Shown: positions 33,066 through 45,596, counted from the stretch's first letter. The stretch: DNA of 64,000 bases from an uncultured bacterium (GCA_964472305.1 CAYYJR010000001.1:25346-89345), one strand, 5' to 3'. Numbers and translations: made by a program. The notes: generated by a model not told the origin, from the sequence alone.

Positions 33066-35168
33066 TCAGGCGCGTGGTGGAAAGGGTGGGCGGCGGTGGT
33101 ACACGATCAGCGCCGAGTCGGGTTTGCCGGGCAGATGTACCTCCAATCCACGCTCCAGCAGCACGAGGCCCGGGACGCGCTGCGTCTCAAGGGTGTCGAG
33201 GTTGGTCACGTCATACTCGGCCTGTGGCTCCAACCCGTGGAGCACGAGGCGCGCGGTATCGAAAGGACTGAGCGGCCGCTTCAGGGCGACAACCAGCCCC
33301 TCGCCCAGGTCGGCGCGATCGTGCTGGCACGCCATCCACGCATCCTGGGTCGTGCTGAACTCGGTCAGCGGGTAATAATCGCCCAGGAACAGGTGCCGGA
33401 TGTCCATGTACTGCTTCAGCTTCCGCTTCATCGCGTCGAACGGGAGATCGTCGCTCATGGGCCGCGTCGTCTCGGGGGTTTGCCACGGGGTAGCGACCTT
33501 GTTGTCGGTCAGGTTCATGCCCAGGTGGACACCCATCCTGCTGCGGAGTTCATAGTCGTTGTCCCAGACATCGCCATCGTGCATCCAGACCAATGGCAAC
33601 CACAGGCGGACGCCATAGCCCTGGCACTGCTGGGCGATGGTGTTCCGCGCGCTGTCGGATTCCGTCAGGGTTACGCTGCGCCGAATCATCTCCAGGTCAA
33701 GACGGCGCCCGCCGCTTGCGCAATTGTCGATGATCAGGTTGGGATGGCGTTGCAGCAACTCATCCAGGAACGCATACATCCCCTCGACATACCGAATCTC
33801 GGTGATCCCCTGCCGGTCCTGCTTGATTGGGCTGAGTGTGGCATCGTTGGCACGCCAGAACTCGAGGGGGGCGATGTTGAAATCCTGCCGGAAGACATCG
33901 ATGCCGAACCCGGTGATTCGATCCGAAATGAGGTCGGTCATGAAGCGGCAGGCCTCGGGATCGCCCATGTTGAAGAGGCCCTCGCCGCCCGAGATCCGGT
34001 TGCGGTTTATCTCGGCGGGGTACCAGGCGGGATCGTCAAAGTCGAGCCACTTCGGCCAGCTCCAGCATTCGGTTTTTTCGTCGATATGCAGGAGCCATTC
34101 GGGATGCTCTTCGAAGATCGGCGTGCCCGGGCAGACCCGCTCCTGTTCGAACCAGAGCAGGAACTTCTTTCCCGTCCGGTGGCAGGCATCCCCGATGGGC
34201 TTGAGGCCTTCCGGATACAATGCCGGGTTCGGATCCCAGTTCCCGTTCTGCTCCCACCAGGGTAGCTTCTTGCCGAACCACTCGGCGTCGATCCAGTAGT
34301 ACTCGATCGGAAGCTCGTGCCGGACCACCTGGCTGATGTTGTCCAGGTGCTGCGCGACGCGCATCGTGCCCCAGGTGTGGGTACACAGCATGCCGCCCAC
34401 CGGCTGCCCGCCGGCGGAGGGCCGATAATGGGCGAGAATCAAGCTGCGCAGCAGGTTGTGGCCGCGCAGGCGGTCGCCCTCCCAGAAGACCAGCAGTATG
34501 CGCGGCGAGCGGACCTCCTCGCCGGGATACAGCGTGAAGTGCGTCTGCGCCATGCCCGCCTGGAGCTGCACCTCGTTGCCCTCGCGCGCGGCCCGGAAGG
34601 CCCATTCGCCGGTCCAGCCGATGGCCGTTATCACGCCGGCCTGCCCGATCTCCAGGTTGAAGTAGGGAAGGTATTCGCTCGAGGAGCGCCCGCCGCCCGG
34701 CTGCACGCGGAAGGTCGCCTTGGGGTTGAGGACGCGGGCCAGCGGGGTGAAATCACCGGGTGAGGCCAGCGCCCCGCGCGAGTGGTGGATCGTGAACTTG
34801 GTGCCCCACGGGGCGGACTCGGGCACCACGACCGTGTCCAGCGCCTGGATGTCGGCCAGGACAGGCGTGTTGACCGCGCCGCCGTTCCTGAAGTAGAGCA
34901 GCCACTCCACCGCCGGGAAGTCGTGGTACTCCGTCGCCACGCAGCGGAGCTCGAGCCCGGTCGCGGGGTCGTTGAACACCACCGTATGCTCGGTCCGGTT
35001 TGCATCCAGGGGGCGCGTCTCATACCGGCGTGAACAAGTACCGAGCCATTCGACCGAGGTCTGTTGACCATAACGGAAGGAGAACGGCAGGTGGACGGCC
35101 TCTGCCGAAAGCAGATGCCCGGCGATCCACGCGTGGGCTGTCTGGGATTCCTGGACTGATGGTTTCAT
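33066..35168 (-). CDS. Glycoside hydrolase, GH36-like (alpha-galactosidase clan)
   Basis: 700 aa from ATG 35168 (MKPSVQESQTAHAW...); clan GH-D/GH36-like motifs (YYWIDAEWFG, FRQDFNI, NCASGGRRLD). Confidence 0.7.
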   Translation of the reverse strand: MKPSVQESQTAHAWIAGHLLSAEAVHLPFSFRYGQQTSVEWLGTCSRRYETRPLDANRTEHTVVFNDPATGLELRCVATEYHDFPAVEWLLYFRNGGAVNTPVLADIQALDTVVVPESAPWGTKFTIHHSRGALASPGDFTPLARVLNPKATFRVQPGGGRSSSEYLPYFNLEIGQAGVITAIGWTGEWAFRAAREGNEVQLQAGMAQTHFTLYPGEEVRSPRILLVFWEGDRLRGHNLLRSLILAHYRPSAGGQPVGGMLCTHTWGTMRVAQHLDNISQVVRHELPIEYYWIDAEWFGKKLPWWEQNGNWDPNPALYPEGLKPIGDACHRTGKKFLLWFEQERVCPGTPIFEEHPEWLLHIDEKTECWSWPKWLDFDDPAWYPAEINRNRISGGEGLFNMGDPEACRFMTDLISDRITGFGIDVFRQDFNIAPLEFWRANDATLSPIKQDRQGITEIRYVEGMYAFLDELLQRHPNLIIDNCASGGRRLDLEMIRRSVTLTESDSARNTIAQQCQGYGVRLWLPLVWMHDGDVWDNDYELRSRMGVHLGMNLTDNKVATPWQTPETTRPMSDDLPFDAMKRKLKQYMDIRHLFLGDYYPLTEFSTTQDAWMACQHDRADLGEGLVVALKRPLSPFDTARLVLHGLEPQAEYDVTNLDTLETQRVPGLVLLERGLEVHLPGKPDSALIVYHRRPPFPPRA

Positions 35169-35172
35169 GGAT

Positions 35173-43742: not shown

Positions 43743-43874
43743 TTGCGTCTCTCGTGTTGTTGTCATCGGCGTTCCTTTGTGGTCAGCCTTAGCGAGGTCC
43801 CCTTCTGCCCCAGCGCAAACATCGTCCCCCTGCGCCCGCATTGGTCGTGTTAATAGTGGCGCCATTTTCGCTAT

Positions 43875-45596
43875 TTATGCCAGCAGCCCCCGCTCGCCGA
43901 GCGACTTGATGAGTTCCTTGTGCCATTCGCGCAGGCGGCGGCTGATGTGGTACTCGTCGTGCGGTTGGCGCTGGTCCCATTGGGCTGCGAAGTTCGCCAG
44001 CACGGGCACCAGTTCGTTCATGCGCCGCGCGTCGGGGAAGCCGGGATTCGTCTTGTTGGTACACATGTGGAAGTAGTGCACCTCGGCTTCTAGAACGACA
44101 TGGGCTGCCCGCGCGAAGAAGGCGAAATCCTCGAACTTCTGCAGGATGAAGCGCTGCGCGTCGGCCTCGAGCTTCGCTACCGCCGGCCGGGCGCGGGCGA
44201 GCAGATCCTCCGCATCCGCCAGCGCCTGCCGCTTCTCCTCGACTAACGCCGCCGGCCCGACGGCCCGGTACGACGGGCCCACCATCCCGGCATGGTACGG
44301 GATGCGCAGGCTCGGCATGCCCTGGGCAAACGGGTAGGCAAAGGCCGCCCCGGCCTTGGTGGTCATCACCTCGCCATGGGCGAACCACCCCAAAACCAAG
44401 CCCATATCGGGCAGAACGGACTGGGCAGTGAAGGTCCCCTGCCCCGCATAATACACGCGCGCCGCGACCCCTTCGACATCCAGGAAGACCTCCGCCAATT
44501 CCGGCAGATCCATGCCGAACTCGCCGCGCAAGAACTCGCACACGGTCTCCCGCGGCGAGGCGGTCGGATCCTTCGCCCGGCGGCAGAAGAACTCGGCGTT
44601 GAACCCGCCGAGCGTGTCGAAGCAGCACAGCTCCAGGTCGGTCGGGAGTGGCTCCCCATCTCGCACCCGCGCGAGCTGGGGGTACAGTGCTCGCCGGCCC
44701 GGCAACACATTCGCGTGCGGACTCCACGAGTCGTGGATGGTGGCAATGCGGGCGTTGACGTAGGCGGCACCCAGAGCACGCGCTTCCTCGAGATGCTGGG
44801 CGAGCTGCGACAGGTTAACGCTCGGATAGAAGTTGCGCCCCCAGTACTCGGAGTGCACGTCGAAGTGCACCAGCAGCGGGTTCGACGTCGCCGCCCGGCA
44901 CAGATGCACATTGAACGGCGAGTGCAGGTTGAAATCACCGAAGGTGTCGTCCGCGCTGACCAGGATCGCCGGCCGCTTGCGGGCTGCGACCAGCAACGAG
45001 TCGACCGCGAAGCGGTGCCCCCCCATGACGTGCAGGTCCACCGACATCTCCAGGTTGTGGCGGACGCACTGCTCATGTACCGCGCCGACGATCCGGTCCA
45101 GGTACTCCTCCATCGGCACCGTCTGATGCTGGAACTCGCTGACCACGACTTCTGACCCTTCCTCGATCCACAACTCGAGGCCGGTCAGGTTCGGCGCCAA
45201 TTCCAGGAGTTCGTCCACCTGGTCCTGCAGCAGTTCGTAAATCCGGGGGCTGCGCATATCCGGCTCACCGGCGGCATTGAACAGTCCCTCACCCGCCGCG
45301 CCCCACTGCGCCGCCGGCGGCATCATGATCGCATGGAAGCTAAACCAGAACCCGATTCCGGCTTCGCGGCACATCGCGGCGGCTTGCCGCAGGTTCTCGC
45401 GCATGACCTGGACGTGCTGCCTCTCCTCCGCCCCGAGCAATCCCGGGTATTTCGGGAACAGGAACGGTCGCCCGGCGTAACAACCGCGACCGACCGTCCA
45501 ATGGACCAGTTGCGACACACCGTGCGCGCTGGCGAAATCCACCAGCCGCCGCCAGTGCTCCGGCGTTCCAAAATCACTGGATAGTCCCAGTTTCAT
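43875..45596 (-). CDS. Uncharacterised protein, tandem paralog B
   Basis: 573 aa from ATG 45596 (SD AAAGGAGAG); MKLGLSSDFGTPEHW...; near-identical to paralog A over long blocks. Confidence 0.6.
   Translation of the reverse strand: MKLGLSSDFGTPEHWRRLVDFASAHGVSQLVHWTVGRGCYAGRPFLFPKYPGLLGAEERQHVQVMRENLRQAAAMCREAGIGFWFSFHAIMMPPAAQWGAAGEGLFNAAGEPDMRSPRIYELLQDQVDELLELAPNLTGLELWIEEGSEVVVSEFQHQTVPMEEYLDRIVGAVHEQCVRHNLEMSVDLHVMGGHRFAVDSLLVAARKRPAILVSADDTFGDFNLHSPFNVHLCRAATSNPLLVHFDVHSEYWGRNFYPSVNLSQLAQHLEEARALGAAYVNARIATIHDSWSPHANVLPGRRALYPQLARVRDGEPLPTDLELCCFDTLGGFNAEFFCRRAKDPTASPRETVCEFLRGEFGMDLPELAEVFLDVEGVAARVYYAGQGTFTAQSVLPDMGLVLGWFAHGEVMTTKAGAAFAYPFAQGMPSLRIPYHAGMVGPSYRAVGPAALVEEKRQALADAEDLLARARPAVAKLEADAQRFILQKFEDFAFFARAAHVVLEAEVHYFHMCTNKTNPGFPDARRMNELVPVLANFAAQWDQRQPHDEYHISRRLREWHKELIKSLGERGLLA

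Follow-up and report, generated by a model that had tools for sequence, protein, structure and literature searches.

The CAZyme clusters of the non-Sus type found in PVC-group and Gram-positive bacteria consist of co-directional, tightly spaced genes for complementary glycoside hydrolases together with hypothetical proteins. The locus described here shares this organization, with one GH95 and two GH36 enzymes. Unlike such clusters, it harbors no transporter, binding protein or regulator, its products are predicted to be cytoplasmic, and its gene order is a recent patchwork with relic fragments. Homologs of its unclassified family are found elsewhere in similar clusters, in the company of GH20 genes, sulfatases, and transporters of the TonB or ABC type. 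The locus is not a Bacteroidota-type PUL, as no TonB-dependent receptor, SusD or regulator is present in it or adjoining it.

The locus was delineated by ORF calling and Pfam searches in a window, which designates the whole 64-kb stretch of DNA analyzed. Its seven genes (33066-45596) run in one direction on the minus strand in the order unkA, unkB, URO-D, GH36a, NIF3, GH95, GH36b. These genes, two relic ORFs, and the region upstream of unkA are as follows:

45597..46364, no strand: intergenic region, 768 nt, between unkA and a divergently transcribed metallophosphoesterase gene
43875..45596, minus: unkA, 573 aa, glycosidase-like, with a TIM barrel and a C-terminal helical domain in the predicted model
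42006..43742 (or 43766 as annotated, 586 aa), minus: unkB, tandem paralog of unkA by homology
40932..41897, minus: URO-D-family protein, 321 aa, MtaA-like (PF01208, 7.5e-17)
40813..40935, minus: NIF3', relic ORF of 40 codons, 5' fragment of a NIF3-like gene (from repeat D5 and its translation)
38672..40816, minus: GH36a, 714 aa, divergent enzyme of the GH36 alpha-galactosidase type (Melibiase, 8e-35, and GH36 C-terminal domain)
37827..38630, minus: NIF3/DUF34 protein, 267 aa, H-E-P variant bearing the cysteine-rich motif GTGCGC (PF01784, 3.1e-16)
37497..37820, minus: GH36b', relic ORF, 5' fragment of a GH36b-like gene (resembles the GH36b N-terminus)
35173..37500, minus: GH95, 775 aa, alpha-L-fucosidase or alpha-L-galactosidase type (catalytic domain, 6e-185)
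33066..35168, minus: GH36b, 700 aa, second, more divergent GH36-like enzyme (Melibiase, 4.9e-26)

The coordinates, strand and families given in an earlier note on this DNA are borne out by these ORF calls and Pfam matches, and so are the short or overlapping junctions that it reported, which measure -4, -4, 41, 6, -4, and 4 nt from URO-D to GH36b, the two small relic ORFs included. Both relic ORFs were missing from its gene list, and the 326-nt 'gap' upstream of GH95 is occupied by the GH36b-like fragment. Because these junctions span -4 to 41 nt, co-transcription and translational coupling are likely for the genes from URO-D through GH36b. The spacers are 108-135 nt between unkA and unkB and 108 nt between unkB and URO-D; homology of unkB to unkA starts at 43733, and the start at 43766 was computed from the 586-aa length of P0417, a cluster member on the same contig that was taken as the annotated product of unkB. 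Since promoter and terminator scans of the locus gave nothing informative, the argument for co-transcription is drawn from spacing alone. The region 45597..46364 is the probable promoter region of the cluster, with a single weak sigma-70-like match (minus strand, 46278-46249) that does not rise above chance expectation.

In ORF scans of the 64-kb window, the locus and its immediate surroundings proved free of transporter, binding-protein, and regulator genes, in agreement with the earlier note as regards transporters and local regulators. Downstream lie dnaX and HPPK, with an AsnC-type regulator 4 kb away, and upstream a metallophosphoesterase and an acyl-CoA dehydrogenase gene; the housekeeping genes that flank the locus comprise dnaX, HPPK, ffh, trmD, and ileS. 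The N-termini of the cluster products show no likeness to signal peptides, and for this reason a cytoplasmic location is predicted. The host is an anaerobic PVC-group bacterium, Lentisphaerota (Lentisphaerae)/Victivallales-like.

The GH95 protein belongs to its family, as its three Pfam domains (N-terminal, catalytic, and C-terminal) all exceed their cut-offs of ~27 bits, with scores, highest first, of 615, 215, and 54 bits, and as it matches the solved GH95 enzymes 7kmq, 2rdy, and 4ufc with E values of ~1e-180. In GH36 enzymes, the nucleophile motif is K-x-D and the acid/base motif G-G-G-R-x-D. Membership of GH36a in this family is indicated by its Melibiase and GH36 C-terminal domains (121 and 33 bits, cut-offs 27) and by the motifs YKLDYN and GGGRND, read off the sequence; it matches AgaA/AgaB in the PDB at 1.6e-27, and its 90%-identity cluster consists of proteins that bear the name alpha-galactosidase. 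GH36b has a Melibiase score of 92 bits, a C-terminal domain score of 21 bits that is below the cut-off of 27, a match to AgaB at 1e-25, and the motifs FRQDFN, with R for K, and SGGRRLD.

The two paralogs unkA and unkB have no Pfam match and are 89% identical in protein sequence and 90.5% identical in DNA. Direct repeats D1-D3 of the repeat scan are in keeping with the tandem paralogy of the two genes, and their DNA identity is a mosaic in which 100-nt blocks of 96-100% alternate with blocks of 73-81%, which points to gene conversion between them. The family is rare, with 30 matches among 5.8 billion proteins, and searches of Pfam, NCBIfam, and PDB sequences turned up no match to it, the family profile included. 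The predicted model is a confident TIM barrel followed by a helical domain, with GH67, GH138, GH20, and GH84 as the nearest folds and GH67 and GH115 as the closest full-length structural matches. Only two glutamates are near-universal among 46 sequences with identities down to 15%, namely E250, which is invariant, and E146, which is at least 90% conserved. They come after barrel strands 7 and 4, respectively, and by their conservation and position they are candidate catalytic residues of unkA.

A (beta/alpha)8 barrel, two conserved carboxylates at the C-terminal ends of strands, and a carbohydrate context are general attributes of glycoside hydrolases that unkA and unkB share, and both very likely represent an unclassified glycosidase family. 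As glycan-degradation genes are present in 11 of the 11 contexts of the family, it is a candidate new glycosidase family. Among the neighbors in these contexts are genes for sulfatases, for transporters of the TonB or ABC type, and for GH20, GH26, GH36, and GH141-like enzymes; in three of the contexts (the window, the P0004 contig, and locus L002), the family is flanked by URO-D-family genes. The member in locus L125 adjoins a full-length GH36b homolog, 33% identical. Some distant relatives harbor a Glyco_hydro_67N domain, and others are fused to a GDSL esterase, galactokinase or GH88-like domain. Sequence identity to GH67 (GH115, GH138) and to GH20/GH84 is 8-12%. In contrast to GH67-type enzymes, the family has no N-terminal beta-sandwich domain, and the D-E or D-D pair found after strand 4 in GH20/GH84 is also absent. 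GH67 members are inverting alpha-glucuronidases built of N-terminal, middle, and C-terminal Pfam domains. Membership in GH67 was rejected, since no Pfam or PDB sequence match was obtained even with the profile, the N-terminal domain is lacking, and the fold alone is similar; the protein may nevertheless act in a GH67-like manner.

The URO-D-family protein belongs to its superfamily by its PF01208 score (61.8 bits, cut-off 23.9), although the match is limited to profile positions 127-345. Its best sequence and structure match is 4ay7 (1e-5 in the PDB search, motif alignment included), from the methylcobamide:thiol methyltransferases MtaA, MtbA, and CmuA. Foldseek with the AlphaFold2 model (pLDDT 92.7) returned MtaA first and HemE next, the HemE structures scoring weaker than MtaA, and orthologous HemE function is unlikely. 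H208-x-C210 is kept and aligns with 'LHICG' of MtaA. In contrast to these methyltransferases, the protein is ~30 residues shorter and has the invariant Q292 in place of the third zinc-binding cysteine; the ORFs scanned in the 64-kb window include neither a corrinoid (B12-binding) protein nor an activating enzyme, and the clade is found in non-methanogenic, glycan-degrading bacteria. MtaA/CmuA membership was rejected, given a score of 55 bits against the NCBIfam cut-off of 235, Q292, and the absence of a B12-binding domain from the scanned ORFs. The clade is conserved at 60-65% identity across phyla, and its neighbors include URO-D paralogs (16/63 loci), GH31 (7/63), and GtaA-like, GH16-like, and GFO/IDH/MocA genes, with GH95 within 10 kb of an ortholog in six loci. 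In PVC genomes, the orthologs have heterogeneous neighbors, often unrelated housekeeping genes, which weakens the case for a glycan-specific role.

The NIF3 gene starts at 38630, where the start codon was confirmed, which corrects an earlier call, and its product scores 60.2 bits against PF01784 (cut-off 23.4), as expected for a NIF3/DUF34 member. The canonical metal ligands of NIF3 are H-H-P, D, H, and E. This protein has H-E-P in place of H-H-P (H63-E64-P65), and H101, D102, D105, H226, and E230 are invariant in its clade, which is 60-65% identical across phyla. The TIGR00486 equivalog, a Nif3-like dinuclear metal centre hexameric protein, was discarded as an identification on account of the H-E-P motif and a score of 35 bits against a cut-off of 130.55. 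Within the family of YbgI and SA1388, the closest solved relative is 9g9u, a 'GTP cyclohydrolase 1 type 2 homolog' (clade-profile search, 5e-25), which is likewise of the short form, ~270 aa long, and has the H-E, H-D, and H-x-x-x-E motifs as well; in contrast, several invariant cysteines of the clade, including those of GTGCGC, are absent from 9g9u. The glycosidase-rich neighborhood of the clade includes GH51 in 8/42 loci, DUF6259 in 5/42, GH42, an enolase-superfamily gene, and URO-D genes, the latter near NIF3 orthologs in three metagenome loci. A metal-insertase role has been proposed for DUF34 proteins, in a survey that does not mention glycosidase-rich neighborhoods (PMC8469502). By these scores, far below the NCBIfam subfamily and equivalog cut-offs, neither the URO-D nor the NIF3 protein is an ordinary housekeeping version; the earlier note was right to call both unusual, each being part of a conserved clade that recurs near glycoside hydrolase genes.

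The relic ORFs shed light on how the locus was assembled. NIF3' lies between URO-D and GH36a, its ATG overlapping the URO-D stop codon and its TGA the GH36a start codon, in both cases as ATGA. Over the 59 nt of repeat D5, it is 73% identical to the 5' end of the true NIF3 gene (38583-38641), and its translation, MKAKDILEHFLSRADRIKRVRTFDTIMGDPGEKFDR..., agrees with the consensus of the NIF3 clade. GH36b' lies between NIF3 and GH95, and its stop codon overlaps the GH95 ATG. It encodes 107 aa from a GTG start or 91 aa from an ATG at 37772, was called as a 91-aa gene in a Logan assembly, and is 79% identical to GH36b over 206 nt (37540-37745 vs. 34912-35117). The two relic fragments and gene conversion show a recent assembly of the locus from pieces; the present order combines at least three of them, each part of an operon, namely unkA-unkB-URO-D-NIF3', GH36a-NIF3-GH36b', and GH95-GH36b.

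The arrangement has no counterpart in the loci sampled. Around the URO-D orthologs, none of 68 genome loci has NIF3, GH36 or unk genes, and around the NIF3 orthologs, none of 45 metagenome loci has GH36, GH95 or unk genes; the full seven-gene arrangement occurred in neither set. A copy of the unk gene at 87% identity has different neighbors as well. A lack of conservation in relatives, which the earlier note had named as grounds for refutation, is thus what these loci show. The undescribed glycan-processing pathway that the earlier note had considered is therefore not borne out as a conserved one: the order seen here is a recent patchwork found nowhere else and provides no evidence for a fixed new pathway. 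The locus is a glycosidase cluster with recurring accessory proteins, and no conserved new pathway has been demonstrated.

On balance, the locus is probably a cytoplasmic oligosaccharide-trimming glycoside-hydrolase cluster of an anaerobic PVC-group bacterium, a recent patchwork and not a conserved pathway module. Its enzymes would most likely trim imported oligosaccharides, with GH95 removing alpha-linked fucose or L-galactose and the two GH36 enzymes alpha-galactose-type residues. The duplicated unkA and unkB would remove a further sugar, probably alpha-linked and possibly acidic, using E146 and E250 as catalytic glutamates in a GH67/GH20/GH84-like barrel. The MtaA-like URO-D protein, with its H-x-C metal motif, and the NIF3-like protein, of the DUF34 family of proposed metal-centre or insertase function, would be accessory. 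The lack of an adjacent transporter, binding protein or regulator for the proposed substrate counts against a trimming cluster, as does the frequent location of PVC URO-D orthologs among unrelated housekeeping genes.

Part of the same evidence lends itself to other explanations. Chimeric metagenome assembly might have generated the relics and the near-identical tandem paralogs, as the source is evidently a metagenome-assembled genome and repeats with 100%-identical blocks are typical misassembly sites. This is highly improbable, however, given that the independent Logan assembly of a sequencing run matches it with 100% identity along 11,249 nt (window 27613-38861, covering NIF3, GH36b', GH95, GH36b, and dnaX), that relics merely 73-79% identical to the full genes are therefore not collapsed or duplicated reads, and that the reading frames are all intact and the ATGA overlaps precise. 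URO-D and NIF3 might also be passengers, an older pair unrelated to glycan breakdown, with recombination having placed glycosidase genes both within and around it and with their adjacency an accident of a rearrangement-prone region. The relics, which show GH36a and GH95 arriving between pre-existing genes, are in line with this idea, as are the housekeeping flanks, the heterogeneous neighbors of the PVC URO-D orthologs, and the fact that both proteins are very highly conserved across phyla, which fits a general cellular role. It is nonetheless unlikely: both clades occur repeatedly beside glycosidases in unrelated lineages (rumen Clostridia, Planctomycetota, metagenomes), translational coupling is maintained from gene to gene by the ATGA overlaps, and the GH36b-type relic directly downstream of NIF3 indicates that NIF3 already lay beside a glycosidase in its donor piece.

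The locus might, on the other hand, encode a dedicated new pathway, in which the GH67-like unk enzyme would free a modified sugar (e.g., O-methylated, possibly acidic), the URO-D protein, with the NIF3-like metal-centre protein maturing or assisting it, would remove or transfer the modification as an anaerobic counterpart of oxidative sugar demethylation, and GH36 and GH95 would finish the glycan. The URO-D family being assumed to have few copies per genome, its presence next to the unk family in 3 of 11 independent contexts exceeds our chance expectation. The overlap of NIF3' with the URO-D stop codon shows a former direct coupling of URO-D and NIF3, and URO-D-family genes are also near NIF3 orthologs in three metagenome loci. 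GH67 and GH115 enzymes, the closest full-length structural matches, release 4-O-methyl-glucuronic acid, and both the partial retention of the MtaA zinc site (H-x-C) and the proposed metal-insertase role of DUF34 proteins would fit. Nevertheless, this pathway is quite unlikely. The corrinoid protein and activating enzyme are missing from the scanned ORFs, a glutamine replaces the third zinc ligand, and the URO-D proteins that adjoin the unk family are of different clades, ~27% identical, and lack a common motif, with H-T-D in that of L002. Moreover, nowhere in the 68 and 45 sampled loci do the two clades represented in this window, URO-D and NIF3, adjoin each other, and no link of these families to glycans was found in the literature. 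It is more doubtful still that the unk enzyme, URO-D, and NIF3 form an unrecognized anaerobic route for modified sugars in which URO-D performs a non-hydrolytic step, such as O-demethylation, with no locally encoded corrinoid protein.

Returning to the cluster as a set of trimming enzymes, its main interest lies in the unclassified enzyme family. The recurrence of the MtaA-like URO-D clade and the cysteine-rich NIF3 clade beside glycosidases in several phyla, on which no literature was found, would, if true, point to at least one undescribed non-hydrolytic step in glycan processing. The relic ORFs with their preserved ATGA overlaps provide an example of glycosidase operons built by recombination between paralogous operons. 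If confirmed, the 573-aa family would be an added glycoside hydrolase family, found almost exclusively in anaerobes of the Kiritimatiellia and Lentisphaeria types. As these are specialists on recalcitrant, often sulfated or heavily decorated glycans, an activity still missing from the breakdown of such glycans could come to light through this family.

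The open reading frames from 45596 down to 33066 run without interruption on the minus strand, in a window of approximately 62% G+C, and include seven genes.

43875-45596, minus strand: unkA, first of two paralogous genes, no Pfam or NCBIfam match
42006-43742/43766, minus strand: unkB, its paralog, no Pfam or NCBIfam match
40932-41897, minus strand: URO-D-like, MtaA-like protein of the URO-D family (PF01208, 7.5e-17)
38672-40816, minus strand: GH36a, GH36-like enzyme (Melibiase, 8e-35, plus GH36 C-terminal domain)
37827-38630, minus strand: NIF3-like, NIF3/DUF34-family protein of 267 aa, start checked (PF01784, 3.1e-16)
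35173-37500, minus strand: GH95 (catalytic domain, 6e-185)
33066-35168, minus strand: GH36b, second GH36-like enzyme (Melibiase, 4.9e-26)

Each of the family calls made from the sequence in the earlier note was borne out by Pfam and NCBIfam, and signal-peptide-like N-termini are absent from all seven proteins. Both flanks are unrelated to the cluster, with genes for a metallophosphoesterase, an acyl-CoA dehydrogenase and flavoproteins upstream, and a 259-aa ORF, dnaX, HPPK, an AsnC-type regulator and a pair encoding a NuoF-like protein and an [FeFe]-hydrogenase downstream. The remainder of the window mostly carries housekeeping genes (ffh, trmD, L10, ileS, lspA, lgt, signal peptidases), and its PTS EIIC gene lies 14 kb from the cluster; the earlier statement that no transporter or regulator is adjacent is therefore correct. 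In a promoter and terminator scan of the cluster, match counts were those expected by chance. The 259-aa ORF (31910-32689, plus strand), which has no Pfam or NCBIfam match, is convergent with the cluster, and the approximately 375 nt of non-coding DNA after the GH36b stop codon (32690-33065) were scanned with no recognisable terminator found.

Other genes of the window have features of their own. The multidomain [FeFe]-hydrogenase (787 aa, with Fe_hyd_lg_C, small-subunit and 2Fe-2S thioredoxin-like domains) adjoins the 747-aa NuoF-like flavoprotein at 23862-28577 on the minus strand; the pair resembles an electron-bifurcating hydrogenase, a sign of a fermentative anaerobe. Ankyrin repeats and an FGE-sulfatase (sulfatase-modifying-factor-like) domain are joined in a 663-aa protein of unusual architecture encoded at 20941-22932 (minus strand). 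Two signal peptidase I genes, for proteins of 436 and 312 aa, stand in tandem at 7579-9838 (minus strand), and the first carries a long insertion inside its S26 domain.

The families, strand and order that the earlier note gave for the gene series stand, but two relic 5' gene fragments, NIF3' and GH36b', and the patchwork structure of the locus had been missed. The full order is unkA, unkB, URO-D, NIF3', GH36a, NIF3, GH36b', GH95, GH36b, with gaps from URO-D on of -4, -4, 41, 6, -4 and 4 nt. NIF3', traced via a 59-nt repeat, is a 40-codon ORF (40813-40935) directly after URO-D. Its translation, MKAKDILEHFLSRADRIKRVRTFDTIMGDPGEKFDR, is the N-terminus of a NIF3-like protein and agrees better with the clade consensus than the resident gene does; its ATG shares bases with the URO-D stop codon, as its TGA does with the ATG of GH36a. 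In the 326-nt "gap" that separates GH95 from NIF3 lies GH36b' (ORF 37497-37820), whose product is similar to the GH36b N-terminus, whose DNA is 79% identical to 34912-35117 across 206 nt, and whose stop codon shares ATGA with the GH95 start codon. The simplest reading is that three pieces were joined through recombination between paralogous or foreign operons, with traces remaining of an older direct URO-D-NIF3 junction and of an older junction between NIF3 and a GH36b-type gene.

The unkA and unkB proteins are 89% identical, and their DNA (90.5% identity) alternates between blocks of 96-100% and of 73-81% identity, a mosaic that points to gene conversion. A conserved tandem pair was considered and rejected: the similar-length downstream genes in two compared loci, L001 and L002, are non-homologous by BLASTP, and the tandem pair of the window is therefore a lineage-specific duplication. 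Longer paralogs of the unkA/unkB family, of 730 and 752 aa, are found in L001 (423-4926) and in L123 (8001-15054; Kiritimatiellae MAG GCA_028718125.1), each followed by a protein of 717-726 aa without Pfam match, which may represent a lineage-specific partner family; the L001 partner has no homology to unkA.

The family to which unkA and unkB belong is rare, with 30 matches at E <= 1e-3 among 5.8 billion proteins, the named ones from Kiritimatiellae and Lentisphaerae, and, with a profile against 1.84 billion representatives, 220 matches (32 below 1e-30). No solved structure was matched by sequence, the family profile included. AlphaFold2 gave a confident model (pLDDT 88, pTM 0.90) in which a helical domain follows an eight-stranded beta/alpha barrel. 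At full length, Foldseek placed GH67 alpha-glucuronidases at the top (E 4e-12, TM 0.55-0.59), followed by GH138, GH20, GH84 and GH115. Distant relatives of the family include some with a Glyco_hydro_67N domain or with a trace of DUF4838. The catalytic carboxylates of barrel glycosidases usually lie after strands 4 and 7. In the model, these are the positions of E146 and E250; in 46 sequences, with identities as low as 15%, E146 is at least 90% conserved and E250 invariant, along with a few structural residues. The setting is one of carbohydrate degradation in 11/11 genomic contexts, and, judged against Pfam, NCBIfam and the PDB, the family is a candidate for an as yet unclassified family of glycoside hydrolases. 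Three distant relatives are fusion proteins that join the barrel domain to a galactokinase (GHMP kinase; P0337), a GDSL esterase (P0305) or a GH88/GH76-like domain (P0351), fusions that could hint at the substrate class.

The clade of the URO-D-like protein has more than 3,000 matches, at 60-65% identity across Planctomycetota, Lentisphaerae, Latescibacterota, Poribacteria and Chloroflexota and at approximately 50% in rumen Clostridia. Among solved proteins, the zinc methyltransferase MtaA (4ay7) is closest to it in both sequence and fold, ahead of true uroporphyrinogen decarboxylases. From the MtaA zinc site, H-x-C is invariant in the clade (H208, C210), whereas the third zinc cysteine aligns with an invariant Q292, and the protein falls far below the MtaA/CmuA subfamily cut-off. 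A corrinoid-dependent O-demethylase operon was rejected because no corrinoid (B12-binding) protein was found among the ORFs scanned in the window. Near the orthologs, NIF3, GH36 and the unkA/unkB family were found in none of 68 genome loci, and GH95 within 10 kb in six; recurrent neighbours are URO-D paralogs (16 of 63 loci), GH31 (7), and GtaA-like, GH16-like and GFO/IDH/MocA genes. Neighbours are mixed at the 20 PVC-type loci, four of which have AraC regulators, and many are housekeeping genes. In MAGs of rumen and gut Clostridia (L028-L060), clade members of approximately 50% identity, often with a second URO-D paralog alongside, repeatedly have GH31, a YnbB-type Met_gamma_lyase and a RimK-like ATP-grasp gene as neighbours, a conserved neighbourhood that differs from that of the window.

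The NIF3-like clade is strongly conserved, at 58-68% identity across phyla. It carries H-E-P where the canonical motif is H-H-P, and H101, D102, D105, H226 and E230 are invariant. Also invariant are C38, C156, C183, C185 and other cysteines, with a GTGCGC motif; this cysteine set is absent from the closest solved relative, 9g9u, and may form an extra metal or redox site. Among 45 metagenome loci, no GH36, GH95 or unkA/unkB-family gene was found beside NIF3 orthologs. Recurrent neighbours are GH51 (8 of 42 loci), transaldolase-like (6), DUF6259 (5) and URO-D-family (3) genes, an enolase-superfamily gene and GH42. A metal insertase or chaperone role has been proposed for DUF34 proteins, in a survey in which glycan contexts go unmentioned (PMC8469502).

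With all seven cluster proteins as tblastn queries, a conserved whole arrangement was ruled out at the 68 URO-D and 45 NIF3 loci, as well as at L121, which harbors an 87%-identical gene of the unkA/unkB family. The undescribed glycan-processing pathway proposed in the earlier note is weakened because synteny is absent from the sampled loci, a finding that the note itself had named as refuting; a genuine new route for modified sugars that relies on the MtaA-like and NIF3-like proteins is improbable. That the two genes are passengers is somewhat less so, though still unlikely. URO-D-family genes stand beside the unkA/unkB family in three of 11 contexts (the window, the contig of the 60%-identical P0004, and L002), and L125 has a GH36b-type gene together with a member of that family; these co-occurrences suggest a loose functional association and do not amount to a fixed module. 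The URO-D proteins concerned belong to different clades, approximately 27% identical, and a common metal motif near glycosidases was rejected, the motifs being H-S-C, H-S-C, H-T-D and none. L002 (10001-17126 of JGI Ga0180432_10000086) is a second, different cluster joining the two families, with a member of the unkA/unkB family, a 574-aa protein without matches, a DHO_dh-like gene, a sulfatase and a URO-D-family protein on one strand.

An assembly artefact is very hard to credit, since a Logan assembly, made independently, matches the window with 100% identity over 27613-38861, the GH36b' relic included. The locus is probably a recently assembled cytoplasmic glycosidase cluster that trims oligosaccharides and comprises a putative new family of glycosidases as well as two accessory proteins of recurrent type. 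Literature searches linking URO-D to glycoside hydrolases, CAZymes or sulfatases, or NIF3 to glycoside hydrolases, and searches on PDB 9G9U and O-methylated sugar demethylation, returned nothing relevant. The glycosidase cluster is of a known type; the unkA/unkB family, and likewise the URO-D and NIF3 genes that recur as companions, are new to the family libraries and literature searched.
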